A stretch of 48,456 nucleotides of DNA from a virus. Taxonomy: Duplodnaviria > Heunggongvirae > Uroviricota > Caudoviricetes. How positions within the stretch are numbered: the stretch's first letter is position 1; each line of letters starts with the position of its first letter. The translations under genes were made by a program, and so were the position numbers. Below, piece by piece: positions 22,042-45,835 of the stretch. Location of the stretch: the IMG/VR virus record IMGVR_UViG_2850808358_000014; one strand, 5' to 3'. The notes beneath the pieces were generated by a model, which had not been told where the DNA came from, did not search any database, and worked only from the letters and a program-made list of their open reading frames with translations.

Positions 22042-22050
22042 TGTTTCCCC

Positions 22051-22407: not shown

Positions 22408-22416
22408 AAATGCTCC

Positions 22417-27532: not shown

Positions 27533-27728
27533 GTCCTGCTGCTCATCATGGTTTGTGAGCAGTCAGTTTGCGGGAGGTGCGGGAAAATCTGGGGTTATGC
27601 TATTTGAGTACTGGAGAAAGAAAGTGGAAGGAAGATAAAACGGGATTCATACACCGTTAAATACCGGTTTAAAAATCCCGTGGCGCGTTTTAAAAAATCT
27701 GTGCGGCTGATTTTATGTCTGATTCCGT
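27533..27728. other. central strong gyrase site (SGS) region
   Basis: About 200-bp non-coding gap between G and I at the genome centre, where the Mu SGS is known to lie. Confidence 0.55.
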
Positions 27729-29514: not shown

Positions 29515-31033
29515 CCAGACGCCCCCATATATCGGCAACAAAAATGGCACGGGTCAGCATGTCGATAAGTTCTGCATCATCCATCTGCGGATATAATGAA
29601 GCGGCTTTGTTCATGGCGGCTTCCGGGCCATCTTTCAGCACAGAAAGAATGACGGGTTTCAGCAGGGGATCAACCGAACGCTGCCAGTCTTCCGGTGAAA
29701 CGCCCATCCGGTCGATATCATCCTCCTGCGGGATATCATCAGCGGATAATGCGGCTTCTTTCTGCGGACCGTTATCCATGACGACCGGTTGAGCAGTAAA
29801 CACGGCTTCATCACCGACCGGCTGTGGAATATGGAGTTTTTCCTGTATCCATGAGACCGGAATACGCATTCCCGCCGCCAGTTTCGGAATGGCGTCAGAC
29901 AGTGCCGTAATATCACCCGCTTCACTGGTATCAAATACAATGCCCGGCAGGCGGTTAATATCAATGGTGCTGCCACTGTTCAGTGCCAGCAGGGGATAAA
30001 TCAGATCACGGTTAATACTGCGGGCAAGCTGGCCCACATCCGCGTTACGGATTTCCCGGCGAACCTCATCATGCACTTCACCCAGCGACCGCGCGCCTTT
30101 ATCGCCAGCCTCTGTGGTCAGGGTGCCGCCCAGAATAGCTTTTGAAATCGCTTTTTCTGCCCAGCCAATCATCGCCATAAAGGGGTCTGACTGACCATCT
30201 GCGGCGCTCTGAAAATCCAGCGTCATCCCCATCGGAATAATGCCACCGGCACGTCGCCCGATATCCATCACGGCCTGCATCAGCGTGGCTTTCTCACGGT
30301 TCGTGGAGCCGGTCGGATATTTACCAACGCGCATGGGGAGTCCGTAAATTTCCAGAAACTCTGCAAAATCACGCACGGAATAGTTTTTAAAAATAAAAGG
30401 CCAGATAAGCGTGCGCACAAGGCCATTGGTGCCAACGTACCCGGTGCGGGATTTGGCCCGGTGCATAAACCAGCCGAACGGTTGCAGCTCCAGCCCGTGA
30501 TAAGACGCATCACGCAGGCGTAATTCGTTCAGATTGTCTGGGTTCGCGCAGAACAGCGCCGGATCGCGATGATGCAGCGCCACCGGTACGCGCATTTTCC
30601 CAAGCCCCCCCCATTCAATCTCCTGCATGGAATAGCCCTTGAGAATGGCATCACCGGCATCAAACAGGGCATCTTCAAACCACGCCGCATCATGCAGATA
30701 TTCATTCAGCATGTCGGCGTCTTTTTTCTCCTGTGCGCTGGCATCACGTGCCGGAGCGATGCGCCATTCCAGCGCCTGAATGGCAAGCCGGCGTTTGCTC
30801 AGTTCGGAAAAAAGGTGGGTGTCCTTTTCTTCCATATCAAAGGCCAGGTCAGCCTGTGCGGTCAGATCACCGCGTTCGGCATCACGCAGCATCTGCGCGG
30901 CCCGGTTCGGCGTCACACCACTGGAAGGATGCTCCTGCGTACGCTTCATGACCATTGCCAGCTCATCGCTGCGGGTCTGCATTTCATCGTCAAAATCAAA
31001 CGGCTGCCCGGAAATATCCAGAATACGGCCCAT
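29495..31033 (-). CDS. H: portal protein H (Mu gp29)
   Basis: 512 aa directly downstream of the large terminase. Confidence 0.9.
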   Translation of the reverse strand: MGRILDISGQPFDFDDEMQTRSDELAMVMKRTQEHPSSGVTPNRAAQMLRDAERGDLTAQADLAFDMEEKDTHLFSELSKRRLAIQALEWRIAPARDASAQEKKDADMLNEYLHDAAWFEDALFDAGDAILKGYSMQEIEWGGLGKMRVPVALHHRDPALFCANPDNLNELRLRDASYHGLELQPFGWFMHRAKSRTGYVGTNGLVRTLIWPFIFKNYSVRDFAEFLEIYGLPMRVGKYPTGSTNREKATLMQAVMDIGRRAGGIIPMGMTLDFQSAADGQSDPFMAMIGWAEKAISKAILGGTLTTEAGDKGARSLGEVHDEVRREIRNADVGQLARSINRDLIYPLLALNSGSTIDINRLPGIVFDTSEAGDITALSDAIPKLAAGMRIPVSWIQEKLHIPQPVGDEAVFTAQPVVMDNGPQKEAALSADDIPQEDDIDRMGVSPEDWQRSVDPLLKPVILSVLKDGPEAAMNKAASLYPQMDDAELIDMLTRAIFVADIWGRLDAAADH

Positions 31034-32688
31034 TACCAGCCCCCTCGTTCAAACTGGTGATAATCATCAAAATCATCGTTATCAACACCATCACCACGGT
31101 GGCGTGGTGGCAGCGCCTGTATGCTGTCCTCGTCGATAACAAAACCATTCATATAAGACGCCCTGACAGCCATACAGAGCGCCACGGCAAAGTCGCCATG
31201 TCGTCGGCCTTTACCGCCTTCGTCTTTTGTGCGCCCCTTATCAATCTGCGGAATACCTTTGTCCACCTTGATGTGGAGCAGGTCATCAAGTGTGGTCTGG
31301 TGCCGGGCAATCGTGATGTTCTGCGCTTCAAACTCGCCTTTCAGTTTCGGCATCCACTCCTGATACCAGGATGCGGTCAGATTCACACAGTCGATCATCT
31401 CCGGGCCATAAATCAGACGGGCGGCTTCTGCCAGATAACCGCCGTTACCGGTGGCATCAAATGCAGCGCCGGTAAAACGGGGCAAACGGGACAGAATGAA
31501 TAAAAGGATTTGTCGCTGCTGGTCATAGGTCACATTACGCAGCTCCACGCGGAAACATTCGCGTTTGCGTAAGTCAGGCGTGATGGCAAGCGGCACAAAC
31601 ACCGTCAGGTCGCCACGGCGTGCAAAGTCTTCGCCCAGTACGTGTTTATTGAGCGGCGACAGCGCATCGAGCAACGGGAGCAGCTCCTGTTCACACCAGT
31701 CCTGAACGATGCCGTGGCGCATTTGTGGTGTCAGCGATTCAAAATCGTCCGGGGCTTCAAAACGCAGAACCGGGATATCCCGCGCGGGTGTCATGGCAGC
31801 TTCAATCAGCACGCGTGACAGATAAGCGCCCCCGGATTTTTTAGGAATGCAGCCGTATTCCTCGTCGGCGCTCTCTTTATTCGGCGCATTCCGGTACAGG
31901 CCATCACGCCAGGCTTTTTCCGCTTCCGGCGACCACGGCTGATTCGTGACGTAACAGATACGCCGGTACAACCCGTCAGCGATGGCATCATCCAGTGTGA
32001 TGCGGTGAACGCTGTAATCCTTGCGCCCCTCGCGCGCATCCTGAATGTACTGGTTAAACAGGTTATCGACGCCGTTATGTGTCGATATGATGCGCACGCT
32101 GGCACCCCACATGTTTAGTGCAAAGGCCGCTTTCAGCAGTTCGTCCAGGGCTTCATGGAATGCCGCTTCATCAATCACCACGTCCCCCTGCAAACCACGC
32201 AGGTTAGACGGGCGGCTTGACAGCGCCTGTATCTTAAATCCGCTGTTCGGAAAGCGGATCATGTAGGTGAGGATTTCTTCTTTTTTGTCGCTGTCCCAGA
32301 AGGTCTGCTCCCAGACGTCAGCCTTTGCCAGCTGGTTAAAGGCGCGGGCAAACAGGGCACAGGCGGCGATGTATTCCAGCGCCATTTCCTGACGGGAACC
32401 CACATAAAAGACGTTGCGACCACCGCGACGCTTCGGCTTTGCTGCCGTCATGACATTGCGGCCCGCTTCAGCCCATGTCAGACCGGTACGACGGGATTTT
32501 TCAGCGATGCAAATCTGGCTTTCATCCTCAAACCAGCGGCGCTGATAGCCCAGAAAAACCGGTTCATTGCGGGGCTGTGCTTCCCCGATATCGGTCACGA
32601 TATTCACGCCGAGCAGTTCGGCTTCCTTACGCAGGTTGATTTTGCGGGGCGCATGAAGGGCTTTAAGTTTGCTTTCTCTGGTGCTCAC
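31033..32688 (-). CDS. E: terminase large subunit E (Mu gp28)
   Basis: 551 aa, GTG start, MSTRESKLKALHAPRK... Confidence 0.9.
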   Translation of the reverse strand: MSTRESKLKALHAPRKINLRKEAELLGVNIVTDIGEAQPRNEPVFLGYQRRWFEDESQICIAEKSRRTGLTWAEAGRNVMTAAKPKRRGGRNVFYVGSRQEMALEYIAACALFARAFNQLAKADVWEQTFWDSDKKEEILTYMIRFPNSGFKIQALSSRPSNLRGLQGDVVIDEAAFHEALDELLKAAFALNMWGASVRIISTHNGVDNLFNQYIQDAREGRKDYSVHRITLDDAIADGLYRRICYVTNQPWSPEAEKAWRDGLYRNAPNKESADEEYGCIPKKSGGAYLSRVLIEAAMTPARDIPVLRFEAPDDFESLTPQMRHGIVQDWCEQELLPLLDALSPLNKHVLGEDFARRGDLTVFVPLAITPDLRKRECFRVELRNVTYDQQRQILLFILSRLPRFTGAAFDATGNGGYLAEAARLIYGPEMIDCVNLTASWYQEWMPKLKGEFEAQNITIARHQTTLDDLLHIKVDKGIPQIDKGRTKDEGGKGRRHGDFAVALCMAVRASYMNGFVIDEDSIQALPPRHRGDGVDNDDFDDYHQFERGGW

Positions 32689-32743
32689 GGGTGAAAAATC
32701 CGGTATAAATTTTCAGGCATTAATCAGTAAAAAAGAGGTTTTT

Positions 32744-32938
32744 ATGAAAGAGAAACTGACCATTGATCAAAAAATCGAAATTGCCCGGATAGCCGTGCAA
32801 ATGTTTGAATCCACCCGGGCAAAAGGCGTTTCACTTGAGATCTCCTGTTCAGGAAAAGCATCAGTGGAAGAAAACACATTTAATGCTTTCTACAAAATTG
32901 TTGAAAAAACCGTTATCGGTGAACCTGAGAATAACTGA
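32744..32938 (+). CDS. hypothetical 64-aa protein on the opposite strand (low GC, strong RBS)
   Basis: AAGAGG-N5-ATG; about 37% GC; its 3' end overlaps the convergent 65-aa gene by about 25 bp. Confidence 0.5.
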   Translation: MKEKLTIDQKIEIARIAVQMFESTRAKGVSLEISCSGKASVEENTFNAFYKIVEKTVIGEPENN

Positions 32939-33110
32939 TCACCTGGCCCGCTGTAGCCGGGCCATCCACCAGTTGCATAACCAGATACAGGGCCTCGGCC
33001 ATAATTCGTGGATGGACTTCCGGATCCTCATCAATCTGTTTTTTCACAACGGGCCACAGTGCCATTGCCAGTTCTGTTGAGGTTTTGTATTTAGTTTTTT
33101 CATCCGCCAT
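32913..33110 (-). CDS. hypothetical 65-aa acidic protein
   Basis: GAGGAG SD; lies between gp27 and the large terminase. Confidence 0.5.
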   Translation of the reverse strand: MADEKTKYKTSTELAMALWPVVKKQIDEDPEVHPRIMAEALYLVMQLVDGPATAGQVISYSQVHR

Positions 33111-33120
33111 TTTCATCTCC

Positions 33121-33291
33121 TCAGGACAAAGTCCTTAGTTGTTTTATGGTCGTATGCCATGAATTGCCTGAAGCCATAGCCTGAACAAGCACATCCCGAA
33201 TCTGGTGTATCAACCGGACATCAGACAATGTTGCAATCCTGAAGGCTTTTTTATGGGCACTGATTAGCTGTGCTTTGTAATTATTTTTCAT
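33121..33291 (-). CDS. hypothetical 56-aa basic protein
   Basis: Starts 10 bp after the gp27 stop; no family recognised. Confidence 0.45.
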   Translation of the reverse strand: MKNNYKAQLISAHKKAFRIATLSDVRLIHQIRDVLVQAMASGNSWHTTIKQLRTLS

Positions 33292-33301
33292 AACGTAACG
33301 C

Positions 33302-33892
33302 CTACGCTTTCCCCAGCAGTACATCACGGATGCGCTGCTCCAGTTCTTCGCTGATGCCATCCTGCCCGCGCAGTTCTTCACTGACGGCGTTTGCCGCTTC
33401 TTCTGCGAACGCCTGGCGGATTTCTTTCTCGCGCCGGTGGCTGGACATTGCTGTGGATTCCAGACGCTGTGCCGCCAGCATGGCATTTTTCAGCAGGTCA
33501 ATATCCACGTCAGATTCCGGGTTTTCGATTTGCCGCATCATGGCCTTAAAAAGCTGGCTGCGGGCCATTTCCAGAATCAGCTTTGTGGTTTCGCCCATTG
33601 GCTTGTCGCCAAGCTCTGCGGTCAGTGCTGACGTCATTTCACGCATCTGTCGCAGGTTATGGCCTACCTGCTCGACGTTCGTCGCGTAACGGTTCAGACC
33701 GGAACGGGAGAGTTTCATCTCATCCGGCAGGCCAGCGTCTTCAATCAGTGCGTTAATTTCTTCAAGAATACGGGCCTGTGGGATCGCCTTATCACGCAGC
33801 ATTTCATGCAGCGTTTTACGTACGTTTTCCGGCAGTAAATCCACTTTTGAAGCCCGTCCCCGTGTTTTCCTGTCCATCACGCCTCCTGTCAT
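33302..33892 (-). CDS. Mu gp27-like DNA-binding protein (putative small terminase)
   Basis: 196 aa upstream of the large terminase. Confidence 0.8.
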   Translation of the reverse strand: MTGGVMDRKTRGRASKVDLLPENVRKTLHEMLRDKAIPQARILEEINALIEDAGLPDEMKLSRSGLNRYATNVEQVGHNLRQMREMTSALTAELGDKPMGETTKLILEMARSQLFKAMMRQIENPESDVDIDLLKNAMLAAQRLESTAMSSHRREKEIRQAFAEEAANAVSEELRGQDGISEELEQRIRDVLLGKA

Positions 33893-34179
33893 GCACGGGG
33901 ACGCGGACGCTTGACACCGGCAATGCGGGCACGGCCTTCCGCCACATCCTGACCACGGGAGGTCAGCGTTACGACATAAAAGCCGCGCAGGTTTTCCACG
34001 GTGACCAGTTGCTGCTCTGCCAGCCAGTCAATCTGGCCGCGAACCACATCACGGGAAACGTTGTGTCCGTATGCATCCAGACAGTCCTGAAGGATGGATT
34101 CGTTGGCTTCGTTATTGCAGTCCATCAGGGAACGCAGGATGACCAGACGACGGTCTTCGGTCAGAATATCGTTAATCAT
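33889..34179 (-). CDS. Mu gp26-like protein
   Basis: 96 aa, conserved position. Confidence 0.75.
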   Translation of the reverse strand: MINDILTEDRRLVILRSLMDCNNEANESILQDCLDAYGHNVSRDVVRGQIDWLAEQQLVTVENLRGFYVVTLTSRGQDVAEGRARIAGVKRPRPRA

Positions 34180-34496
34180 GAATTACTCCGGTTTACTGCG
34201 TTTTCAAGCAGCAGCTCCAGTTGATGGGAAAATGACTGCACCTGCCGGGACAGCACCCGGATATCGCCGGACAGCTCTGCAATTCGCAGGCGCATTTCGT
34301 GTACATCTTCTGTGCCAGGGATGCTGGCGTAGCGGGTTTCCATTTCGGTCATCCGGTTTTCAAGACGCTCCACACGCTCGGTGCTGGCAAAACTACGACG
34401 CATCGCCCAGACGGCCCCACCGGCGGCGACAGGCAACAGGTACAACAGGTAAGGCCATAACGCTAAAACTGAATCCATTATTCTGCTCCACGGCAC
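34176..34496 (-). CDS. membrane protein with N-terminal TM helix (Mu gp25-like lysis protein)
   Basis: 106 aa; hydrophobic N-terminus LALWPYLLYLLPVAAGGAVWA. Confidence 0.7.
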   Translation of the reverse strand: MPWSRIMDSVLALWPYLLYLLPVAAGGAVWAMRRSFASTERVERLENRMTEMETRYASIPGTEDVHEMRLRIAELSGDIRVLSRQVQSFSHQLELLLENAVNRSNS

Positions 34497-34672
34497 CAGT
34501 GGCAGTAGTTCGCCATCGGCTGCTGTCTCAGCACATCAGGCCGCAGCTTACGACCGCAACCGGCGCACAATACAGGCGGGTCATACGCCGCCGGACGGGG
34601 AATATCACGGGTATTCCCCTGCCAGAGTTCAGCGAGCAGCAGCGCCACCGCCCGGTTCTGGTCTTCGTTCAT
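34478..34672 (-). CDS. small Cys4 zinc-ribbon protein (Mu gp24-like)
   Basis: 64 aa with CxxC...CxxC. Confidence 0.65.
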   Translation of the reverse strand: MNEDQNRAVALLLAELWQGNTRDIPRPAAYDPPVLCAGCGRKLRPDVLRQQPMANYCHWCRGAE

Positions 34673-35216
34673 AAATTTCTTTCCTCCGGGTCTCCTGTTC
34701 CCGGACTGATGCCTTGTCGCGGTTGCACTGCCCGAGCGCTATCAGCAGGTCAGCATTCCAGAGCAGGGATGCTCCCCACGTCAGGGGCTGTGGCATGGGC
34801 GGAACGGGCGTTGCTTCCGTCAGTTCTGCATCAGTTTCGGCAGGATCACCACCGATGGCACGGGTGCGTTTTTCGAGTTCCCGCAACCTGTCAGCAGCAA
34901 CGGCAGGCACAGGACGAGTGCTGCAATTGTCACCGGTAATGGCGGTTGTAATTTTTTGTTTTGCATCATGATGTTCTGTCTCGTCTGCCAGCCGCGCGGC
35001 ACGATTTGCGGCACGGATAGCGGAAAATACCTGCATCGTCTGTTCCTGACTGTGTAACAACCATTCAGCCGTGTTGCGGGCCTGTTGCTCCGTCTGTAAT
35101 TCACGGCGCAGCGTCTGGTTATCGTGGCGGGTGCTGTCCAGCCTGTGCCACAACACCCCGGACAGAACGGCGGCAAACACGGCTGCCAGCAGTAAACTTT
35201 TACTGGCGAAGGTCAT
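34629..35216 (-). CDS. i-spanin-like lysis protein (Mu gp23-like)
   Basis: Begins MTFASKSLLLAAVFAAVLSGVLW (TM helix); in the sequence as given it is fused to lys by the frameshift. Confidence 0.65.
   Translation of the reverse strand: MTFASKSLLLAAVFAAVLSGVLWHRLDSTRHDNQTLRRELQTEQQARNTAEWLLHSQEQTMQVFSAIRAANRAARLADETEHHDAKQKITTAITGDNCSTRPVPAVAADRLRELEKRTRAIGGDPAETDAELTEATPVPPMPQPLTWGASLLWNADLLIALGQCNRDKASVREQETRRKEIYERRPEPGGGAAAR
34820..34969 (-). CDS. o-spanin-like lipoprotein embedded in an alternate frame of the i-spanin gene
   Basis: MMQNKKLQPPLPVTIAALVLCLPLLLTGC has a signal peptide and lipobox. Confidence 0.6.
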   Translation of the reverse strand: MMQNKKLQPPLPVTIAALVLCLPLLLTGCGNSKNAPVPSVVILPKLMQN

Positions 35217-35717
35217 CCGCCCCCTGATATTCCAGATAGCCATTTCCACTTCGCGACGGTTCATCAGTCCTTTCCATTTATGGCCTGCGGCAAACACCCA
35301 GCGGGCCATCTGGTCACGCGCTCCGGCGTAATCACCGGCATTGAGTTTTTTCAGCAGCGTTGATTTACTGAATGCGGTAACACCGGTGTTGAAAATAAAC
35401 GTTGCCAGCGCCGTTTTCTGATATGGCGTCAGCGGCACCCTGACAAGACGATCGATTGCCGCATAAACCGGTTTTAAATCACTGTCGAGAAAAGCCATAC
35501 ACTCCGCATGGCTGTAACGGCGCATTTCGATATCCGGCCCGGTATGTCCCACACAGACCGTAAGCACACTGGCAATATCGCGGTAAGGCATATAAGCGAT
35601 ATTTTCCAGATGGATCAGAGAATGACGGGTCATTTCCTGATAACCACCCACACCGCCACCGGCAATCGTTGCCGCCAGCAGTGCGGCTTTCAGTTTTTTT
35701 GGTATCCCCGCCATCAT
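35200..35717 (-). pseudogene. lys: endolysin Lys (Mu gp22), frameshift near the 3' end
   Basis: MMAGIPKKLKAALLAATIAGGG... matches Mu Lys; the frame slips at a G/C run near 35222 and reads on into the spanin frame (362-aa fused ORF). Confidence 0.85.
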
Positions 35718-35808
35718 GCTTCCCTGAAAAAATGCTCTGATGGCAGTCTAAAAAATCAGATGGCAGGTGCGGGATTATGGTGACAGGAAATAACCGGCAG
35801 GATGCCGG

Positions 35809-36230
35809 TTATTTCTGGCTTTCAGGTGAGAACAGATCAGGCTGATGACGTCGTGTATGCAGCTTTCTCTGGCGGGCAATAATCTGGTAGATCTGCGGCT
35901 GGGACAGGCGGTACTGGCGACGCAGTTCTTCCATGTTACGACCATTGAACTGGCAGTAAAGCAAATCGTCGCGTAACGCGGTCAGGATCGTATCGCCGCA
36001 GGGGATGTAAAACTGCCGCCCCCCAGAAAACAGGACAGGGCAACGGCCTGTTTACGGGCAAGCTCACGGGGATTGCTGACGTTCTGGCGTTTCAGTTCGT
36101 TTTCCAGAACATCAATCAGATCAACCACTGAACGGGGCCAGCGTGATTCCAGTTCCGGGGCCGGGATGTTATCAATATGCCCGATTAACTGGCGAATTGC
36201 CGGATCGTGTTCAAATAAATCATGCTGCAT
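35809..36230 (-). pseudogene. C: late transcription activator C, frameshifted
   Basis: MQHDLFEHDPAIRQLIGHID... matches Mu C up to ...SCFLGG, then slips at a run of about 6 G/C near 36021. Confidence 0.85.
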
Positions 36231-36341
36231 ATTTTCCCCGGTTAACAGACAAAAAGATACACCACGGCACTGATGGTTATCAGAACCACAAGGGCAATCA
36301 CTTTTATCGCATTAATCAGCGTGGACGGCCCGAAACATTCA

Positions 36342-36572
36342 TCACTGAATTTTCTGTACACAATATTTTTCCTTATAACGTTGACAGTGGTGAAGAATTT
36401 CCGGCATATCAACTGACTGCCAGCCTTTCATGTAATAACTGCCGTGGGTGCCATCATGACCGGTATAGTCGCGGGGCGCAGGCCGTGGCCCACCGGCGAC
36501 ACGGTGCAAAACCTCCTGACGCAGCCGCTCACGTCTGCCAAGATGAAAGGATGCATTCCAGCCTTTACCCAT
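36342..36572 (-). CDS. small hypothetical protein between mor and C
   Basis: 76-aa ORF; a possible 46-aa hydrophobic ORF follows at about 36231-36345. Confidence 0.55.
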   Translation of the reverse strand: MGKGWNASFHLGRRERLRQEVLHRVAGGPRPAPRDYTGHDGTHGSYYMKGWQSVDMPEILHHCQRYKEKYCVQKIQ

Positions 36573-36614
36573 GATGATTTCCCCCGGTACGGTTATTCAT
36601 CACAGGATATTGAG

Positions 36615-36645
36615 GACGTAAAAAAAGCCGGATTAACCGGCTTTA
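36615..36645 (-). terminator. rho-independent terminator directly after mor (early-operon terminator)
   Basis: GCCGG-ATTAA-CCGGC hairpin followed by U7 on the minus strand, 9 bp after the mor stop. Confidence 0.55.
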
Positions 36646-36649
36646 CTGT

Positions 36650-37039
36650 TTACAGAAGTGAGGGCTGGTACTGGCGGTATTTCAGCCGTCGCATCCGGCG
36701 AATGGCCTTGTAAACCGTATTGAAAGTGACACCATAACGGGTGGTCAGTTCGCTGACGTTGCGACCGTTAAAATCATTCCAGATACGCAAATCCCGAATC
36801 AGCGAGTCCAGAACCTGACCGCGTGGAATGTAGACCTGACCGCCGCCCAGATGCTTACAGATAGCCACAACAATCTCCAGTGAATGGGCAGGATCAACAC
36901 CCAGCCGGGACAATTCCCCGCGTAGTAAATCGTTCAGCTCCGCCAGCAGTGCCGGAAAGCGTGACGTATCCTCTGCGGGATTGTCAAGATGTGCCAGGAT
37001 GGTGTCATCCTGCAAATCACCAAATAAATCTTCCGTCAT
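36650..37039 (-). CDS. mor: Mor, middle operon regulator
   Basis: 129 aa, MTEDLFGDLQDDTILAHLDNPAEDTSRF... matches Mu Mor. Confidence 0.95.
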   Translation of the reverse strand: MTEDLFGDLQDDTILAHLDNPAEDTSRFPALLAELNDLLRGELSRLGVDPAHSLEIVVAICKHLGGGQVYIPRGQVLDSLIRDLRIWNDFNGRNVSELTTRYGVTFNTVYKAIRRMRRLKYRQYQPSLL

Positions 37040-37586
37040 TGTGCCATCCTCCGTGTCTTTCTGGCATGGGCATAAGCCGCCGTCATGGCATCATAGCCGC
37101 GCAGTTCACGACCAGACGGACTGACCGGCAATGGAATCCCGTGACGGGAAAAGGCTTCACGAATACAGCGGATGTGCCACTGTTTCAGGGTTTCAAGCAC
37201 AACTTGCAACGATTCTCCGTGGCACCAAGCCAGCGTGGAAACACCCTGTCCGCCATTACGTTTCGCCGTCAGGCGCTGAACATATTTATCCAGCGCCACA
37301 TCACCGCCATCGGTAATAAAACCGTCTTCTGCCATCTGCTGCCAGACTTTGTATACCTTCTCGCGGGAGTGACATGCCCCTTAAAGCGGCGACGTGGATG
37401 TTTATTCAGCTTCTTAAAGCCGCGTTCTTTCATGGCATCGAGCACCTGTTCCAGTTGCGTAACCGTAAGCTCGCGGCAACTGGTTTTGCCCGTTTTCTGC
37501 ATCAGAAAAGCGCGGTAAGTGTCGTCGTCGAGTTGTAGCTCCCGACGGGCGACATGGATTAATTTAATCAGGGATGTGCGATTCAT
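37036..37586 (-). pseudogene. gemA: GemA, frameshifted
   Basis: 105-aa and 99-aa fragments; join ...HPRRRFKG|ACHSRE... at a G/C run near 37378. Confidence 0.85.
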
Positions 37587-37655
37587 GATCGTACCTCCGG
37601 AAAGAGGCGGTGCTGCAACACCGCCTGAATTTACACATCAATCAGAGAGGATTTT

Positions 37656-37922
37656 ATGGAAAATAATGTACAACCTTATGATGTTGCAGGTTATGCGATT
37701 GCATCAGCACTGGTGCGCCTTCTGGTGAAGAAGGCGATCATCACCGCAGAAGAGGGCCAAGCCATTTTCAGCTCTTCAGCAGAGATTTTAAAAGATGCGC
37801 CTGCAATGAGAACAAGCCGCCGCGAAAAACTGCAACTGTCAAAGATCATGGAAGACATTATCAGTTCGTTAGACCCAGATGCTGACGGATCTCAAAAGCC
37901 TCAAACACATGAGCGTCAGTAA
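37656..37922 (+). CDS. opposite-strand 88-aa ORF with strong RBS in the early-operon gap
   Basis: AGAGAGGA-N4-ATG; overlaps the 3' end of the upstream early gene by about 60 bp; a competing 56-aa same-strand ORF exists. Confidence 0.35.
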   Translation: MENNVQPYDVAGYAIASALVRLLVKKAIITAEEGQAIFSSSAEILKDAPAMRTSRREKLQLSKIMEDIISSLDPDADGSQKPQTHERQ

Positions 37923-38178
37923 CAATATCCTGGTCTGATAACCCCAGCCTGCGGCGGATGTACTCCTCGCGGGCTGTTTCATTTTGCAGTGCCACTAATG
38001 TTTCCAGACGATTCATTTCGCGGTTGATAATGTCACGAACTTCTCTGGCAGTGAGAGCGTGCTTAATACCATATTCAACGATAGCGCGAACACGTTCCAG
38101 CATCCTTTTTTCAGCCATGACGTTATCAATATTAAGGGGAGTAAATTTAGTTTCATTATCCATATTATTCACCTTCAC
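37861..38178 (-). CDS. Mu early-region protein (gp14-like)
   Basis: 105 aa, conserved position. Confidence 0.75.
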   Translation of the reverse strand: MKVNNMDNETKFTPLNIDNVMAEKRMLERVRAIVEYGIKHALTAREVRDIINREMNRLETLVALQNETAREEYIRRRLGLSDQDIVTDAHVFEAFEIRQHLGLTN

Positions 38179-38347
38179 AATTCATGCACGCCGTGTCATC
38201 GCCCATATCGCAGTGGTTGCATTTCAGCCCGCCACAATGAGGGCACTCTTTCAGATATTCAGGGGCTTCATTACCGCAGGTCGGACATGCCTGTTTCACC
38301 GTGGTGAATGTCCCCAGCCACGAATACGATGTTTCATTGTTTTCCAT
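38165..38347 (-). CDS. small zinc-ribbon protein (Mu gp13-like)
   Basis: 60 aa with CPTC...CPHC...C motifs. Confidence 0.75.
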   Translation of the reverse strand: MENNETSYSWLGTFTTVKQACPTCGNEAPEYLKECPHCGGLKCNHCDMGDDTACMNCEGE

Positions 38348-38903
38348 TGTTTACCTCCGCCTGTTTTTGCGCCCGGATAAATTCGTCAGAAAGGATTTCA
38401 GTCATGCGGCCTTGTGCGGGTGTCATCCCCGTCATGACGTAAATCACATCACCAACACGGAACCACTGGAGAGGTCCGAATATTGTTGCGCTGAAATCCA
38501 GTCCCAGTGCGGGTAAGAGAGCGTCTGTGCGGGCATAAGTGACCGGAATATTCTCCTGCCATATTTTCGCCAGCTCTCTTGCCTGCACCCTGAGATGAGC
38601 AGGTATCCGCGAAGTTCTGGGCCTGCAACTGTTACCTGATGCGGGCCGTTGTACGGTCCACAGCTCCCGCGAGAAGGGGCGCTCATTCCCCGGAAAATTC
38701 ACGCCATGAAAATGACGCCCACCAATACCTGTGCTGAATACTGACCGACAACCACAACCCAGAACCTTATCAAGATGGCGGGCTTCTTCGCGTAGTTTCA
38801 GACAGTCCGCCATAAACTGGTCCCACGCCATCAGTGCTGCGGGATTTGACGTTTTAAAAAACATCACGCCACCTCCTGCACCGCTGCGGGAGCCGGAGAA
38901 CAA
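38334..38903 (-). CDS. Mu early-region protein (gp12-like)
   Basis: 189-aa ORF; N-terminal half has unusual composition. Confidence 0.65.
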   Translation of the reverse strand: MFSGSRSGAGGGVMFFKTSNPAALMAWDQFMADCLKLREEARHLDKVLGCGCRSVFSTGIGGRHFHGVNFPGNERPFSRELWTVQRPASGNSCRPRTSRIPAHLRVQARELAKIWQENIPVTYARTDALLPALGLDFSATIFGPLQWFRVGDVIYVMTGMTPAQGRMTEILSDEFIRAQKQAEVNNGKQ

Positions 38904-39394
38904 TCAAGAATGAGATAACGCAGTACATGGTCGGTGATATTCCAGGCGCTTGAACTGCAAATAAAACGCCCCAGCCGGATATCGATATAAGCCATCACAA
39001 AACGGGGCATTCCCTGTTCGCACATTCTGTTATCCACCTCAGCAACAATGTGGACTGACTCACAGGTCAGCACGCCCGTCGCAAACTCTTTTGCCAGCGC
39101 GGGGATGGTATTACCTTCCACCCAGGGTAATGAGCGACGCCAGTTGCACCACACCGCATCATCAACAGCAGGCTGCTCAGTTGCGTTTCGTCTTACAGGC
39201 GGCGTCGGACGCGGGCGCGGAACGTCATAAAATCCGTTGCATTCGGTGAGCACTCCGGCATCAACCGCATCACGCAGGAAATACACCATTGACGAGGGCA
39301 GCATATTCATTTTTTCAGCCAGAACTCCGCAGGTCAGGCGTCCGTAAGCCCGTAATAATGTGCTGACACCATTCAGAATTTTTGCATCAACCAT
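38864..39394 (-). CDS. Mu early-region protein (gp11-like)
   Basis: 176 aa downstream of gam. Confidence 0.7.
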   Translation of the reverse strand: MVDAKILNGVSTLLRAYGRLTCGVLAEKMNMLPSSMVYFLRDAVDAGVLTECNGFYDVPRPRPTPPVRRNATEQPAVDDAVWCNWRRSLPWVEGNTIPALAKEFATGVLTCESVHIVAEVDNRMCEQGMPRFVMAYIDIRLGRFICSSSAWNITDHVLRYLILDCSPAPAAVQEVA

Positions 39395-39492
39395 GTTTTA
39401 TTCCTCAGTAATCTGTTTCAGGCGCGAGCAATCCCCTGACGTATCGCGCCATAATTAAAAGAATGTGAATTAATTAAATATTAATGGTGGTA

Positions 39493-40017
39493 TTAAATAC
39501 CGGCTTCCTGTTCAAATGGAATAATAGAAAAATCCTCAATGCCTGATTTAACTGTAATTCCGGCAACGCCTGCGACCGCTTTCGGTTCCAGTAAAATCGC
39601 TTCCTTGTTGATTTCCTGCTTCGTGCGAATAAAGCGTTGCAGGCCAAGACGCTCCAGCGTTTCCATCACTGCATCCATACCACGAATACTTACTGATGGT
39701 GGACGGACCCGCCACGATACATCACCGGTGACAAGATTCGCCGTCTTCACTTTGCCGCCGTTCGTCAGTTCGTCGCGGTTCGCTTCACACCATCCCTGAA
39801 CGCCTTTTGAAAGGGTTTCAATATCGGTTTTAATCGGTGCAATCCGGGCTGCAAATTTCTCCGTAATTTCCGCGATGGCATCATTCATTTCCGTTTCCAG
39901 ACGTGATGCTTCGCGCTGTAAATCCCCGATGCGTTTAATATCGGTAATCACCGCATCGCGGTTTTGTGGCACATAAGCCGCTGCGGCACTTTTGATACGT
40001 TTTGCTGGTTTAGCCAT
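39493..40017 (-). CDS. gam: host-nuclease inhibitor protein Gam
   Basis: 174 aa, MAKPAKRIKSAAAAYVPQNRDAV... matches Mu Gam. Confidence 0.9.
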   Translation of the reverse strand: MAKPAKRIKSAAAAYVPQNRDAVITDIKRIGDLQREASRLETEMNDAIAEITEKFAARIAPIKTDIETLSKGVQGWCEANRDELTNGGKVKTANLVTGDVSWRVRPPSVSIRGMDAVMETLERLGLQRFIRTKQEINKEAILLEPKAVAGVAGITVKSGIEDFSIIPFEQEAGI

Positions 40018-40036
40018 AAATTAAAGCTCCTGTTAA

Positions 40037-40336
40037 TTAATATCCGCTGTATACAATGCTGGATACAGCTCGATTGCTTAATTCCATCTTTCGGGCAATG
40101 ACATGAATATCCAGTCCTTCTTTATAAAGTTCACGACATAAATATTTGTCGTGTTCACTGATTCGGTATACACACAATGATATTCCGTGCCTTCTGGCAT
40201 GTGCCCGGAGGGCGGTTGTGGCGACTTTCAGTTTTTCCGCCATTTCTTCAACGGTCATTTTCCCGACGTTGGCTTCGATAAATTCCCGGTCTTCGCGTGA
40301 CCAGCGCTTACGATTACACTTCATGTCAGCCACCAT
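40037..40336 (-). CDS. HTH DNA-binding early protein
   Basis: 99 aa with HTH-like segments (MTVEEMAEKLKVATTALRAHARRHG). Confidence 0.7.
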   Translation of the reverse strand: MVADMKCNRKRWSREDREFIEANVGKMTVEEMAEKLKVATTALRAHARRHGISLCVYRISEHDKYLCRELYKEGLDIHVIARKMELSNRAVSSIVYSGY

Positions 40337-40780
40337 TCAGTACAGCAGAGGCTCGCGCAGTGATGCCGGAATATGCCGCAGCGATAACTGAACCGCTTTC
40401 AGGGCAAGCGAGGAATAACAGCAGCGCGCCCAGCCTTTTGCCATTAACCGGTAATCGCGCCAGATACGCTGCCACATTTCCCGGGCTTCAGGATCTGATG
40501 CGCAGATGTATTCCCGGTCCATGACGTACTCCCATAAATCCACGTTGAACGCACCGCCAAATGCAATGGCGCGGGATATGCTTTCGCCGCAATAACGCGC
40601 ACAGATGCTGTAATGGTCGAAAGCAATCAGGTAAGTCTTTTCACCACAATCATCAACTTTCCGGGCGCAAATAAACTCGCGTAATTCACCACCGTTGTTA
40701 TTGCGTTCCTGAATTCGGATTAATGCCTGAATTTCATTTCGGATTTTGACATTCATTGTCAGCGTTCCTTTCAGTGACAT
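40337..40780 (-). CDS. Mu early-region protein
   Basis: 147 aa, conserved position. Confidence 0.7.
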   Translation of the reverse strand: MSLKGTLTMNVKIRNEIQALIRIQERNNNGGELREFICARKVDDCGEKTYLIAFDHYSICARYCGESISRAIAFGGAFNVDLWEYVMDREYICASDPEAREMWQRIWRDYRLMAKGWARCCYSSLALKAVQLSLRHIPASLREPLLY

Positions 40781-41034
40781 GTTTTTTCAACAGCCATTTC
40801 AGTGACACTGCCACCTGTGATGACACCATCGTTTTTCAAAATCTCAATGGCTTCATGAGCTGACTCATTAATTATTTTCTGGCTTTTGTTAAGCACCAAT
40901 AACGCCACCAGACCTGCAAGTGTAGCCTCATCCCCTTCCATTTCCACACTACCACCTACCGCAATACTGGTGCGCAAATGCCGTCCTTTAGTTCCAGATA
41001 CTGTATTTTTAATTTCAATAATTACCTTTGCCAT
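40771..41034 (-). CDS. Mu early-region protein
   Basis: 87 aa, conserved position. Confidence 0.7.
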   Translation of the reverse strand: MAKVIIEIKNTVSGTKGRHLRTSIAVGGSVEMEGDEATLAGLVALLVLNKSQKIINESAHEAIEILKNDGVITGGSVTEMAVEKTCH

Positions 41035-41045
41035 TTTGTTTCTCC

Positions 41046-41300
41046 TTATTGATTCTGAATAACTGCGCTGGCTTTTACCTTCGCGCCTTTTACCTGCTTA
41101 AAGAAAACCGCGCTGCACCACGGACAACATGCAAAGGAGTCCCATACTTCATTTTCTGGTGAGCATTGCGTCATAATTTGCTCTTTGCATTTGGGGCAAT
41201 TAAATGCAGTCAGAGGCACATTGTTATTCTGTACCCGTTTAACCCATTCAATATATTTTTCAGCTTTAGTACACATCGTTATCTCCAGATAATCTGGCAA
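41046..41300 (-). CDS. Cys-rich small early protein
   Basis: 84 aa with CPKC...CPWC. Confidence 0.7.
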
Positions 41301-41506
41301 CCATTAAGACGGGCCGTCCATACAGAACGGGCCACCCCGGACTTATGCTCCATAATTCTGACCGCGTTTTTTACCAGTTCCACCGGTGGGTAAGTGATTT
41401 CAAGAATCGGACGCGCTACGCCGAGATATGATTCATTTACATGACTCCCGCGCGCCTGTAACCAGTTCTGCGCATCCGTTGCCATTTTTATATTTCGGGC
41501 CATCAT
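41279..41506 (-). CDS. kil: Kil
   Basis: 75-aa ORF directly downstream of B, the position of Mu kil. Confidence 0.75.
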
Positions 41507-41521
41507 AATTTCTTCTCCTTC

Positions 41522-42459
41522 TTAATTACGCAGCAGCGTTGAAATATCAACGTCCAGGTCTAATTCACGGAAAGCCTGACGCAGATAATCTTCGTTAACA
41601 CGCTCACCTTTACCGTGAGCCGTCATGGCGGCAAGGCGAAGTGAATGATTCAGAATGCGAAGCGCACCTGGTTTCTGCGCAATCTGCTGTAATAACTCCA
41701 GTTCTTTTTCGCCGTTAATCTGCCAGGCATCCGCAATAGCTTTTACATCGGCTTTTTTGGTTTTATTAATTGCAGTGCGCTTTGCAATACGGGAAAACAG
41801 ACGGGCAAATTCAACCGTTCTGTTACCCCCGTCATATTTGAATAAACCCGGTGATTTCCCATCAGTACAAGGCCAATACGGGTTGATTCCTGTAACAGGC
41901 GGAGTTCTTCCAGAACTTCGGCACCAAGATGATCAGCTTCGTCGATGATAACCAGCCCCTGTGTACCTTCAAGGCGACGTCGCAGGGCACGGGAGAGTGG
42001 CCCTTTACGGCGTGGTGCGTCATTCATTCCCAGCTCAAACGCCAGTTCAGTAAGACATTCCAGAACGCTGGCACAGGATGGCGTAATGGTGATCATCCAG
42101 ACATTGTTATTGGTGCGGCGATATTCACGGGCCGCTTCGGTTTTGCCCACACCAGGATTGCCACATACAACAGCAATACTTTCAGTCAGGCTGGCAAAAC
42201 GCATACTTGTCCAGATTTGTTTTACCGTCTGCGTTTCCACAAAGCGGGGCGGTTCAGGTAGTTCTGCAACTGCATGATATTTTTCCAGCCAGCGTTGCAG
42301 CATTTGTGAAACACGCTCGTTATCCCCGTTGTACTTATCATTGATAAAACTACTGATAGTTCCGGTAGAAAGCCCGCTCTCAAGAGCAATTTGTTTAAAG
42401 GTGGTTTCTTCATTTTCTACAAGCGTGCGCAGTCCTGCGCGAATATCGGAAATATTCAT
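41522..42459 (-). pseudogene. B: transposition ATPase B, frameshifted
   Basis: MNISDIRAGLRTLVENEETTFKQIAL..., Walker A GNPGVGKT; frame slips after ...YSNMTG at a G/C run near 41829, C-terminal part continues in another frame. Confidence 0.9.
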
Positions 42460-42497
42460 CTGAATAACCTCGTAATTAAATTTTGTTTAAACGTTAA

Positions 42498-44494
42498 TTA
42501 AATGGCTTTTTTACGTCTGTTCTGTTCCAGAATATCCAGCGAATGATTCAGATATTCATCACGCTCAGTTTCGTATTCATCATCACGCTCCTGATTCTTC
42601 ACTCGTTCCGTATTACCGGAAGGCCGGAAAATGCCGACAATTCGTGATTCTGGTGCTTCAGGTTCGGCTATCTGCGGCAGCAGCTCTGCCACTTCCAGTG
42701 CATCCATTTGTTTCTGTGCCTTAATCGCTGCTTTCGTCGCAGATTTCAGTTGTTTCTGGCGGCGGCGATATTCACGGCCTGCCGCAGCATCATTAAACGC
42801 AACAGGTGCCAGACATTCCGCTTCACAGATAAACCGACCGTCCAGGGTGTAGCAATAAACCGTGCTGTGTAACTGCTGTGGATCAAATCTGACCACAACT
42901 TTTTTCACTCCGGCATTCATTAACGCCATGTTGTAATAAACGTTTTTCGCGCCTTTAAGGGAGCCGCCAACTTTAAGCGCGAACTCGCCTTTACGTGAAA
43001 CGTTCACCGCCTCGGCAGGCAGTAACAGCATCCGTTTTTGCTCTTCGGTAGGCTTACGCACAATCGTTCTGGCGTATTCACGCTCAAAAACGTCATCAAA
43101 CGAAAGTTTGCCTCCGCACATTTCTGTTTCACGGCCTGTTCTGGCATTGAACATCGCCACACCTTCGGCAAGGGTTTTCAGAAACAGCTCTGCATCAACA
43201 GCGCGGTCGCCATAGTTATCAGGTTTTGCCTGCGGATTTGGCCCCGTATATGCGCCAGCCAGTGCCGGATGCTTATCAACGTATTCCTCAAGCCCACCAA
43301 CACCGAAAGCACGTTCAACAGGTTTTGCCTGGCCCCAGCCTTTACCGGCAACAACGCTTGTCCAGTGCATTTTCGCCCCATCAGTAAAAACAGTCCTTTT
43401 GGATCGTCCTCTTTTACCTTAAAGCGGTAGCGATTGGGCGCGCCTCCCGTCAGCCATTTATTCGCAGCACCACGGGTGTTATCAATGGTGATGTGAAAAT
43501 CCTCCGGGATACCGTAGCGAGTCACAACATCCATGAACGAGAGGCGAATTGAATCAATGTTCTCGCTCACATCGCAGCGCCAGCCCAGAATTTTTCGGGT
43601 TTTCACATCCTGCCAGAACCATGTTTTCGGACGGATCACATCACCGTTAAACCAGCGTACAAAGACGTTATGCAGATAACCGTCGCCGTTGATCCACTGC
43701 ATGGCGTCCAGGTGTTCCACAGTTCGCTGCTGTGCCGGTATCAGATGCATCAGTGCATGTTCACCTTCACGACAGGCAACAACCATTGCCTCGTCCAGTT
43801 GCTGAATCCGGCGAAAGGCCGTGGCACGGGAGGGAATACTCCAGCCATGCTCGCGGGCTGCCAGTTCCAGACGCTCATAACATTTGCGGAAGGCGGGTTT
43901 TTCCGGTCGCAGATAATCTGCAATCAGAAACTGCCAGGCATCCTCGTCAAATTCACTTTTGTGAACATTGCGACGGGATGCTCCACGTCCATCAACAAGT
44001 GCAGCCGCCCAGTCAGGCTTCGCAAACTTCTGTACCTGGTAATACTTGTCCCGCAAAGTGGATGCGCTGACCTGGTAATGCCCTGCAACGGTCGCAAAAG
44101 CCGTTTTCGTTGAAATCCCCTGGTTCAGCATTTCGTCTGCAGCCTGAACCGCAGGCAACCATTTTTCAGCAAGTCTGCGCTGGGAATCGCTGGCGTTATC
44201 CCATTTGCTCCACAGTGCCTCACGATCATAATCATGGGCTTCCAGCGTGGGGCGGGCGATTTCAAAATACCCCTGGCTTGTTTCTATTTGCTCAGATTTT
44301 AATAACAACTCAGCACGTGCTGCCGCTGGTAGAACTGATATATGAAATTCCAAAGCCTTTGAACCCGTACGCTTGCGACGTAGTTCTGGATGATTGGCTG
44401 CAAGCTTTTCAAGATTGCGGCGAATACTCACCTCATGTTTAGGAAAGCATGACATTCCTACGCATTCTTGCGCTGTTACCCAATGGGTTAACAT
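42498..44494 (-). pseudogene. A: DDE transposase A, frameshifted
   Basis: 448-aa and 290-aa fragments both match Mu A; join ...FLLMG|AKMHWTSVV at a G/C run near 43377; N-terminal ~65 aa differ from Mu (D108-type). Confidence 0.9.
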
Positions 44495-44714
44495 GATGTT
44501 TTCTCCATATACCGAGAAGGCCAAATCTGGGCTGGTTCCATATCCAAATATCTAGCAATGATTGCTTCGTATCGTGGTATATGGCAGCGAAATACGTTAC
44601 GCATAGTGTCAGGCTTTAAGCCTGCCTCTCTGGATAATTGAGATAGTGTCTTCCCTTCATACGAACAGCAGCCTTTATCTGCTCTGCGTGCCAGTCTTGG
44701 TTTTTTGCTGACAT
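44488..44714 (-). pseudogene. ner: Ner-like early regulator (D108-type), frameshifted
   Basis: MSAKNQDWHAEQIKAAVRMKG then a frame slip near 44654; corrected it reads ...KTLSQLSREAGLKPDTMRNVFRCH... and ends overlapping the A start. Confidence 0.75.
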
Positions 44715-44883
44715 TCTGCGATCCTTACTCTCTTAACGTTTTCGGTAACTGATACCGGCTACCGCTATCGGGAAAAACGATAGCGCAGAAAAATGCGCAT
44801 TTCAAGAGCTGTGCGCATTTTTATTTTAACAAATGCAAATCAAAGCATTCTGTAAAATTCTTTATATAACAGAGAGATTGAAC
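44715..44883. promoter_or_regulatory. operator/promoter region between ner and c
   Basis: Divergent intergenic region, the position of operators O1-O3 and promoters Pe/Pc in Mu. Confidence 0.65.
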
Positions 44884-45492
44884 ATGACAGGCGAAAAAGA
44901 AAGCAAAAATGCAGAGCGCATTTTTATGCCCTCGGAAATAATGCGTTTCAAGGAACGCCTTGAAGAGGCAATGAATGGAGAATCAAGCCGGGCGTTTGCA
45001 GCTAAGTGCGGACTTTCTGATGGGGTTATCAGAAACTACCTGTCTGGCAAGACATACCCGTCTTTAGATCGATTAGCACAAATAGCCTACGCAACAGGGC
45101 GTCCAATAGAGTGGTTTATCCAAAGTCAGAGCATGCCAATGGTTGAGCATAAAAATGCTCAAGAGAATAAAAATCCTCAACCTGACCGCAGCACATTGAA
45201 AACTAAACTGATCGCAATTGTCGAATTGTTAGAGGACAAGGAACTGCATTCTGCGATTGAGTTGTTCAGAAAGAAAGGATTTGAAGCTCTTATGCCTGAG
45301 ATTTTTTCTTCCGATGATTCCATCCAGGCTGATTTGCAAGGTATTTCGCAGCAAACCTTACAAACAGCCAAAATGCTTGAATCATTACCAACAGATACCC
45401 GTAAAGAGATTTTGTCAAAGTATGGTATTTATGAACAGGAAGGTCTTGTAGCTCCTTCACAAGAACCACAAGATGTAAAAAAAGCCGTATAA
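44884..45492 (+). CDS. c: repressor c (non-Mu N-terminal DNA-binding region, Mu-like C-terminus)
   Basis: C-terminus ...ILSKYGIYEQEGLVAPSQEPQDVKKAV is close to Mu Repc; start taken at the second ATG, with an SD. Confidence 0.85.
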   Translation: MTGEKESKNAERIFMPSEIMRFKERLEEAMNGESSRAFAAKCGLSDGVIRNYLSGKTYPSLDRLAQIAYATGRPIEWFIQSQSMPMVEHKNAQENKNPQPDRSTLKTKLIAIVELLEDKELHSAIELFRKKGFEALMPEIFSSDDSIQADLQGISQQTLQTAKMLESLPTDTRKEILSKYGIYEQEGLVAPSQEPQDVKKAV

Positions 45493-45649
45493 CAACCATG
45501 AACCAGCTAAAACATACTTCACCTCACATAATCACACATGTAACATACCTAAACGGCATGAGCTGATTTGTGATATGAGTCATTTGGTTACAGCCTGGTT
45601 GTTATCGGTTTTGAACGTTTTTTGAAGCTGTTATTGAAATGATTTGCAG

Positions 45650-45830
45650 TGTTTTTGTTTTTCGTATTTTCAATGAAACAAAAGCAATTTTTTACTATCT
45701 TTCGCGTTTCATTGATTAACGACTAAAATTTGCGCTACAGGCTTGCAAGCCCCACCAAATCTAATCCCATCAGATCCCGAATAATCCAATGTCCTCCCGG
45801 TTTTTTTCGTACTTCAAGTGAATCAATACA
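45650..45830. other. Mu left end attL (MuA binding sites L1-L3)
   Basis: Reverse complement matches the Mu left-end sequence TGTATTGATTCACTTGAAGTACGAAAAAAACCGGGAGGACATTGG... as recalled. Confidence 0.85.
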
Positions 45831-45835
45831 GCCAG
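45831..45835. repeat. GCCAG target-site duplication, copy 2
   Basis: Identical to 8883-8887. Confidence 0.8.

Follow-up and report, generated by a model that had tools for sequence, protein, structure and literature searches.

The window analysed here, a 48,456-nucleotide stretch of viral DNA (IMG/VR record IMGVR_UViG_2850808358_000014), carries a complete prophage of the Mu family, resident in an Escherichia coli chromosome, whose early-control, or immunity, cassette was probably exchanged for one from a different enterobacterial Mu-like lineage. The cassette encodes most of the repressor c, the whole of the regulator Ner and the N-terminus of the transposase A, and it has no nucleotide similarity to the corresponding regions of phages Mu, D108, SfMu and PhiR68_1. 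Its repressor appears to bind DNA through an XRE/Cro-CI helix-turn-helix head of the lambda/434 style and not through the winged helix of Mu, while the transposase seems to have kept a winged helix at its N-terminus. The exchange itself is of an expected kind, since heteroimmune relatives that arise by cassette swapping have long been known among temperate phages, notably from the comparison of Mu with D108.

Alignments of the window to Mu (NC_000929) and D108 (NC_013594), made with blastn, both break off at window position 44287/44288. Similarity to Mu resumes at 45373 (Mu nt 458), and similarity to D108 at 45472 (D108 nt 360). The 1,085-bp block from 44288 to 45372 corresponds to Mu nt 459-1528 and contains repressor codons 1-163, the c-ner control region, ner and A codons 1-67. 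On either side of it the prophage is 94-98% identical to the two phages, over 8888-44287 and, at the other end, over 45373-45830 (Mu) or 45472-45830 (D108). Residues 68 to the end of A are 99% identical to those of both Mu and D108, and at the DNA level the final 40 repressor codons match Mu with 95% identity. Among 50,697 phage records, blastn with 11-nt words found no match to the block, and in a distant-mode nucleotide search of the phage collection with the cassette, its Mu-like edges alone were matched.

An earlier note on this DNA had read it as a mosaic prophage, Mu-like except for the repressor N-terminal domain, Ner and the first ~65 residues of A, with the repressor C-terminus and the remainder of A as in Mu. 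This description is borne out throughout: alignment with Mu and D108 showed no near-identity to Mu across 44288-45372, where nothing aligned at all, and the estimate of ~65 residues was accurate, the junction lying at Mu A codon 67. The interval that had been proposed, 44488-45492, took in ner, the intergenic region and c; it left out the heterologous 5' part of A (44288-44494) and ran on into the 3' end of c, which is Mu-like (45373-45492).

Pairwise comparison of the leftmost 3.5 kb covered Mu, D108, SfMu, PhiR68_1 and the window. All heterologous pairs among these five phages regain ~98% identity at nearly one place in A, Mu nt 1481-1529, and in a five-way DNA alignment all phages converge at ...ATTGAAACAAGCC.GGGGTATTTTGAAATCGCC... 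in that gene. Homology between Mu and D108 resumes at Mu nt 1519 and that between the window and Mu at nt 1529, so that the two junctions in A are at most 10 nt apart. Codon 67, at which the junction falls, is where the I-alpha domain gives way to I-beta in the established domain structure of MuA. A single cassette is common to D108 and SfMu (92% identity), while those of Mu, PhiR68_1 and the window are all distinct. Judged by sequence, the window cassette adds a fourth immunity type to the Mu/D108 backbone, beside the Mu, D108/SfMu and PhiR68_1 types, and it is the only one of the four with an XRE-family repressor head.

The cassette is of neither the Mu nor the D108 type. Identity to Mu is 25% in the repressor head (residues 1-100, forced global alignment), 38% in Ner and 29% in A residues 1-67, only the last 40 codons of c being Mu-like. 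Identity to D108 is 32% in the head, aligned in the same way (32-41% over the repressor segments), 39% in Ner and 35% in A 1-67, with no alignment at the DNA level. The resemblance to the pattern of D108 relative to Mu, to which the earlier note had drawn attention, is genuine in that the block composition matches the classical Mu/D108 heterology and the junction in A is the same. These likenesses are what speaks for one alternative, namely that the region is the D108 (or SfMu) immunity cassette and the phage a D108-type phage. That reading was rejected by the alignments and merits practically no credence: nothing in the window aligns at the nucleotide level with the stretch of D108 from nt 361 to 1475, Ner and A 1-67 are as distant as the figures above indicate, and the repressor head falls into another Pfam family. 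The same comparisons rule out the cassettes of PhiR68_1 and of SfMu, whose immunity region is of the D108 type, with c, ner and the A N-terminus 89-98% identical to D108 (PMC4406740).

The repressor is predicted to comprise an XRE/HTH_3 five-helix head (residues ~16-79), a disordered linker (83-98), a helical domain common with Mu c (102-179) and a tail that ends ...SQEPQDVKKAV. Pfam HTH_3 matches residues 35-78 with 30.8-31 bits against a curated cutoff of 23. The repressors of Mu, D108, SfMu and PhiR68_1, in contrast, are all recognised by PF02316, the Mu winged-helix DNA-binding domain, with E-values of 1e-22 to 1e-54; on the window repressor this family covers only residues 103-170, outside the head. 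In an AlphaFold model built from 15 homologues, residues 20-80 of the head have a predicted local distance difference test (pLDDT) score of ~90 and helices span 102-141 and 156-179, with linker and tail disordered. The modelled head superposes on C.AhdI with a root-mean-square deviation of 1.3-1.5 Å (target template modelling score 0.81-0.84), on P22 c2 with 1.3 Å and on 434 Cro with 1.6 Å; SinR and ImmR were also superposed on it by Foldseek. The Foldseek E-values are weak (≥1.6e-3) because just one third of the repressor query aligns, and when the whole repressor was searched against PDB sequences, no match was better than E 0.3.

Behind the head, residues ~105-202 are 53% identical to Mu c in a local alignment. 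Mu c has a leucine-rich middle domain and a protease-sensitive tail, and the motifs of both parts (...LMP... in the middle, SQEPQ(D/E)VKKAV in the tail) are conserved across repressors with either type of head. A protein search with the repressor retrieved a family of HTH_3 repressors of 172-216 aa in Mu-like prophages with the gene order c / ner / A / B / kil. Across Mu-family repressors, one middle domain (L..KL..I..LL...E...A..L....G...LMP) is found behind two alternative heads, winged helix or XRE, and ahead of at least two tail types, ...VKKAV or ...KKxG. The combination of an XRE head with a Mu-like C-terminal segment also occurs in a Yersinia similis protein (P0021) with only 33% identity, which suggests that it is old.

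As HTH_3 proteins have many roles, and the role of this one is read from its sequence, the protein might be some other regulator, with immunity conferred by something else. This is very unlikely. The protein occupies the exact position and orientation of c, as the leftmost gene and divergent from ner; it shares its middle domain and tail with Mu c; and PHROG 3037, a family of phage repressors, matches it over its full length (PHROG 7148 matches residues 101-198). No other regulator gene lies within the cassette. The head (residues 19-85) moreover shares 46% identity with repressors annotated as CI-like in transposable phages of Pseudomonas (JBD88a, Spike and the D3112-like group), in which the gene likewise lies at the left end, although there the similarity ends after the head and the nucleotide backbone is unrelated.

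Ner, the product of the first gene of the early operon, is matched in its intact copy by PF13693 (E 1.9e-25) and carries an ...IWPSRY motif; 22 alignment columns are invariant among the window, Mu and D108 proteins. The start codon of A lies at 44494-44492. Residues 4-75 of A match the solved I-alpha domain of MuA (1TNS) with an E-value of 8.6e-5, while PF02316 scores 22.2 bits on residues 1-69 alone, slightly below its cutoff. By these sequence matches the N-terminus of A is a diverged I-alpha winged helix.

Homology between the N-termini of repressor and transposase has been used since 1985-86 to explain how the two proteins come to share operator and enhancer binding in Mu. In the window phage, BLASTP found no alignment between the A N-terminus and the repressor head at E≤100. 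Control comparisons of the same two segments gave 41% identity (E 1e-17) for Mu and 58% (E 2e-20) for D108, reproducing the homology as the 1985-86 reports are cited in PMC3820752 (refs 51 and 52). It is absent from the window phage because the repressor head is of the XRE type while the A N-terminus remains a winged helix; given these two folds, repressor and transposase cannot read one sequence in the same way, unlike their counterparts in Mu and D108. In a small set of 10 phages, which are phylogenetically non-independent, the XRE head is always paired with an A N-terminus of the subclass ...RRKRxGSKAxE[FY]xI..LP, and the winged-helix head with the other subclass.

The closest cassettes are found in Citrobacter-type Mu-like prophages (loci L009-L012, repressor clusters P0005-P0014). 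Identity to the window is 84-92% in Ner, 60-81% in A 1-67, 64-66% in the repressor head and 50-86% in the repressor middle, and gene order and operator-like motifs are conserved; L012, whose A gene call starts internally, was left out of the comparison of A N-termini. These prophages differ from the window in their repressors, which are 172-180 aa long and have a different short tail (...KKxG), and in the A core, which is 66-74% identical to the Mu-type core of the window. For the closest of them, L009, the values are 92% in Ner, 81% in A 1-67, 86% in the repressor middle and 66% in the head, against 74% in the A core. On the A side, the window tracks L009 as far as the junction and is then ~100% identical to Mu/D108 while L009 diverges. 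On the c side, it tracks L009 to ...GCTCTTATGCCTGAGATTTTT (~45300), passes through a diverged Mu-family stretch and from 45373 onwards is at least 95% identical to Mu and PhiR68_1. Because the window switches from L009-like to Mu-like sequence at both edges, recombination is preferred to local divergence. The repressor middle and C-terminus, Ner and the I-alpha domain of A do remain homologous to Mu proteins, as they would if the block were a Mu-type cassette that had evolved fast where it stood, without recombination. Such a history is nevertheless highly improbable, as at each edge identity drops from ~98% to below detection over a few bases, the repressor head comes from a different fold family and the cassette resembles cassettes on other backbones far more closely than those backbones resemble its own.

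The control region between c and ner contains a predicted early promoter, Pe, directed towards ner-A-B, which was the only sigma-70-like promoter on the ner strand in the region scanned. Its -35 hexamer and spacing are conserved in L009 and more weakly in the other related cassettes. Around it lie two exact copies of an 11-mer, TGCGCATTTTT, in perfect inverted arrangement, and these are its only two occurrences in the window. The left copy belongs to a palindrome, AAATGCGCATTT, situated inside the predicted Pe spacer. Copies with one mismatch are found within c at 44915-44925 (AGCGCATTTTT) and at 45151-45161. In an alignment with three related cassettes, the block formed by the candidate operators and predicted promoter is the best-conserved non-coding stretch, and the second and third copies of the 11-mer are recognisable. 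The one-mismatch 11-mer is not enriched over the window as a whole (6 copies where 2.7 are expected, with 6 reached in 9 of 100 shuffles), and what is notable about it is the exact inverted pair and the clustering only. The 11-mer palindromes are probably operators for the repressor.

Between the -10 hexamer of Pe and the start of ner lies an array of short CGG/CCG palindromes, the pattern of which is kept in four related cassettes. It might conceivably serve as a Ner operator or as an enhancer element for the I-alpha domain of A; the Ner site of Mu likewise lies between the early promoter and ner. The motif of the array is too frequent in the window for any argument from counts: TACCG-N4-CGG was rejected as an operator on statistics, since only 1 of its 8 matches in the window falls in the cassette and it is non-specific.

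The preferred explanation is that a Mu-family prophage exchanged its early-control cassette by recombination in flanking homology. The exchanged unit would comprise the repressor DNA-binding head and middle, the control sites (promoters and operators), ner and the I-alpha domain with which A binds the enhancer, with one junction at A codon 67 (the I-alpha/I-beta border) and the other in c, ahead of the last 40 codons. These parts would travel as one block, and the junction in A would be reused, because they must recognise each other's DNA sites. The repressor may dimerise or oligomerise through its Mu-c-like helical domain and bind TGCGCATTTTT-type palindromes that flank and invade the early promoter, whereby ner-A-B would be shut off; the cassette's own Ner would act at its own site downstream of Pe. 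The middle domain probably mediates a Mu-like oligomerisation, and the Mu-like tail (...SQEPQDVKKAV) probably retains protease-dependent control of the Mu style. The latter is proposed because no self-cleavage domain of the LexA/CI type (Peptidase_S24) was found in the repressor by Pfam at E up to 0.1-1, the C-terminal half being Mu-c-like instead, and the action of ClpXP on the Mu c tail provides an established precedent. The phage is thus very likely heteroimmune to both Mu and D108, with an immunity specificity distinct from either.

Several points weigh against this account. The predicted Pe is a bare consensus match, with 1 found where 3 would be expected by chance in the scanned region. 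The third copy of the 11-mer lies within conserved coding sequence (NAERIF), so that the protein alone may explain its conservation. Both the assignment of operators and heteroimmunity are inferred from sequence. No near-identical cassette on a non-Mu backbone, as a donor would carry, came to light. Finally, the copy in the window has frameshifts in ner, A and B, and would be defective if these were real.

Compared with Escherichia coli SE11 and N1286, the window is one base short in each of these three genes, every time in a run of C. Compared with Mu, there are ~18 single-base length differences in the well-conserved parts of the prophage; all are deletions and nearly all shorten a G/C run. 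With Mu, D108, SE11 and N1286 taken together as references, one-base deletions lie at 17730, 18347, 18887, 19812, 23229, 27283, 29266, 34839, 35220, 36019, 36236, 37369, 37608, 41826, 43376 and 44652. At least 12 phage genes are split by these deletions and there are no insertions; beyond ner, A and B the genes affected include gemA, C, gp30, I, L, gp42, N (twice) and P. Frameshifts in so many genes, ~ten of them late genes, could be taken to mean that the copy is decaying and non-functional and that its cassette now controls nothing, and other assemblies do contain internally deleted derivatives of the same phage (L016, L018). This interpretation is unlikely. Every change is a single-base deletion, nearly always in a G/C run, with no compensating insertions, in-frame stops or large deletions; both prophage ends and the target duplication are intact; and A and Ner are full-length in other copies with the identical repressor. 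As contraction of homopolymers in one direction is a signature of sequencing error and not of gene decay, the frameshifts are probably artefacts of the source assembly. In the two deleted derivatives, which have the identical repressor, a truncated A adjoins a baseplate-hub (gpP-like) gene (L016, 1-2110) and ner adjoins tail-fibre assembly genes (L018, 1-2331).

In a census of 5,426 complete E. coli genomes, the window cassette type was found in two genomes, those of SE11 and N1286. The D108 type was found in 45, the Mu type in 27, many of them laboratory lineages, and the PhiR68_1 type in 15. The cassettes of SE11 and N1286 are 99.6-99.8% identical to that of the window and lie at different chromosomal sites. 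A repressor identical over all 202 residues is present in 304 blocks of the assembly collection; 10 such places were inspected, and they have ~9 different host flanks, with an intact 665-aa A in 8 and a called 75-aa Ner in 7; the sites in SE11 and N1286 are two more. The many insertion sites show phages that carry this cassette to be transposing and forming lysogens in nature.

The nearest known parallel is the heteroimmune pair Mu and D108 (Mizuuchi, Weisberg and Mizuuchi 1986, as ref. 52 in PMC3820752), which share a near-identical backbone and differ in the repressor head, the control region, ner and the 5' end of A. In that pair the N-termini of repressor and transposase are homologous within each phage; in the window phage they are unrelated. 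The junction on the c side of the window also lies 100 bp further in than in the Mu/D108 pair, and for that reason the Mu-type C-terminal tail of the repressor has been kept. The Yersinia phages vB_YpM_5 and vB_YpM_6 (Muvirus) and Klebsiella Kp4866-3 have repressors with XRE or Phage_CI_repr heads and the same A N-terminus subclass, although the repressors are only 32-38% identical to that of the window and the whole of A differs (28-30% identity beyond residue 67). A paper on the Yersinia Mu-like phages names the gene 'C-repressor' and does not remark on the different head (PMC10434027). In a literature search of incomplete coverage, no description was found of the cassette of the SE11 Mu-like prophage or of an XRE-headed repressor on a Mu/D108 backbone. 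The sequences have been public for years, with the window-type repressor annotated in public records as 'helix-turn-helix domain-containing protein' only, and a heteroimmune Mu relative made by cassette exchange is of a well-known kind.

Homology between repressor and transposase N-termini is accordingly not a fixed property of Mu-type phages, and it becomes an interesting question how enhancer and operators are arranged when the two proteins share no DNA-binding fold. It may be, though this is rather less likely than not, that on a backbone with a transposase core 99% that of Mu the repressor and the I-alpha domain have been uncoupled and now bind DNA with unrelated folds; the phage would then put a textbook feature of Mu regulation to a natural test. 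Provided that the phage is fully functional, either enhancer and operators are separate, interleaving sets of sites or competition between repressor and transposase at a shared site is dispensable for Mu-type immunity. The A subclass with ...RRKRxGSKAxEF... might then read an enhancer motif of its own, for which the CGG/CCG array would be a possible candidate. In practical terms, genetic tools based on Mu or D108 should escape repression in strains with a prophage of the window type, and the reverse should also hold. The window type would go undetected if prophages were typed by c/ner PCR or through homology to Mu c.

The prophage spans 36,943 bp in reverse orientation and is collinear with Mu, from Mu nt 1 at window position 45830 to nt 36717 at 8888. 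A 5-bp sequence, GCCAG, is duplicated at its two ends (Table 1). The N-terminal part of an ISEc20 transposase gene adjoins the right-end copy and the remainder of this IS110-family element, 98-100% identical to annotated ISEc20 copies, lies beyond the left-end copy, the two flanks combining into a single transposase gene. With GCCAG at both ends and the two halves of one gene as flanks, this is a canonical Mu-type transpositional insertion with an undamaged target duplication. By tblastn, 53 of 54 Mu proteins were located in Mu order, most at 90-100% identity, gp19 being the only one without a match; gin, the G segment in its G(+) arrangement, com and mom are all among those located. The intact SE11 copy of A is matched by PF02316, PF09039, PF02914 and PF09299 (the I-alpha, I-gamma, DDE_2 and C-terminal domains), and B is 91-100% identical to MuB by tblastn. 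In its ends, its 5-bp duplication, its DDE transposase A and MuB ATPase and its genome-wide synteny, the prophage belongs to the Mu family (genus Muvirus).

Table 1. Positions in the window of the prophage, its ends and the features of its early region
Feature	Position	Strand	Basis or remark
Mu-family prophage, complete	8888..45830	-	blastn against Mu/D108; tblastn with 54 Mu proteins
Target-site duplication GCCAG, 5 bp, right-end copy	8883..8887		direct reading of the sequence
Target-site duplication GCCAG, 5 bp, left-end copy	45831..45835		direct reading of the sequence
Mu-type left end: attL with transposase-binding sites and final 40 c codons	45373..45830	-	95% identical to Mu nt 1-458
Heterologous early-control (immunity) cassette	44288..45372		without nucleotide similarity to Mu, D108, SfMu, PhiR68_1
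Repressor gene (c homologue), 202 aa	44884..45492	+	Pfam, AlphaFold model, Foldseek, repressor alignments, PHROG 3037
c-ner control region, 169 bp	44715..44883		holds predicted early promoter and candidate operators
Candidate repressor operators	44789..44822		AAAAATGCGCA - 12 nt - TGCGCATTTTT, perfect inverted pair at 44789-44799 and 44812-44822
Predicted early promoter Pe toward ner-A-B	44777..44805	-	consensus scan; -35 TTGAAA 44805-44800, 17-nt spacer, -10 TATCGT 44782-44777
Short CGG/CCG palindrome array (CGGTAACTGATACCG, ACCGCTATCGG)	44739..44775		between predicted Pe -10 and ner start
ner, 75 aa in intact copies, Pfam HTH_35	44488..44714	-	1-nt deletion in C run at ~44652
Transposase A, 665 aa in intact copies	42498..44494	-	codons 1-67 (44294-44494) cassette-specific; 1-nt deletion in C run at ~43376
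MuB ATPase gene	41525..42459	-	broken by 1-nt deletion in C run at ~41826-41831

The interrupted ISEc20 transposase gene lies at window ~8686-8887 and 45831-46830, and an open reading frame (ORF) at 45730-46830 in the program-made list is an artefact in which the Mu left end is fused to the frame of ISEc20. ISEc20 itself sits in a P4-like or satellite-type island (window 1-8600 and 46830-48456), giving a three-level nested insertion. The left flank matches genes for primase, major capsid, head decoration, single-stranded DNA-binding (SSB) and small terminase proteins, with a closest identity of 88-92%; the right flank contains small ORFs at 47055-47841, candidate Icd-like genes from their translations alone, and a DUF3950 ORF at 48259-48456.

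Elsewhere, the backbone departs from Mu in a number of places. A 618-bp insertion at 32688-33305, between the homologues of gp27 (small terminase) and gp28, is absent from Mu and D108 and contains two small ORFs of 67 aa (-) and ~64 aa (+), which have no Pfam match and fall in PHROGs 21398 and 25148, of unknown function. Part of it is common to the Yersinia phage vB_YpM_Tongde (87% identity), and it may be a moron. The gene for Mu gp19 (E19; Mu nt 9462-9832) is absent at window ~36358-36360, where the gp18 and gp20 homologues adjoin. Mosaic patches on the Mu backbone lie at 12643-13420, 24093-25060, 40774-41276 and 41830-42459. The products of gp36 and gp37 are 50% and 72% identical to those of Mu and those of gp6 and gp7 79-88%, and the tail fibre S is diverged in its C-terminal part (77% overall). 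B has 91% identity to Mu over its N-terminal two thirds, a part that is also close to N1286 and strongly diverged from SE11.

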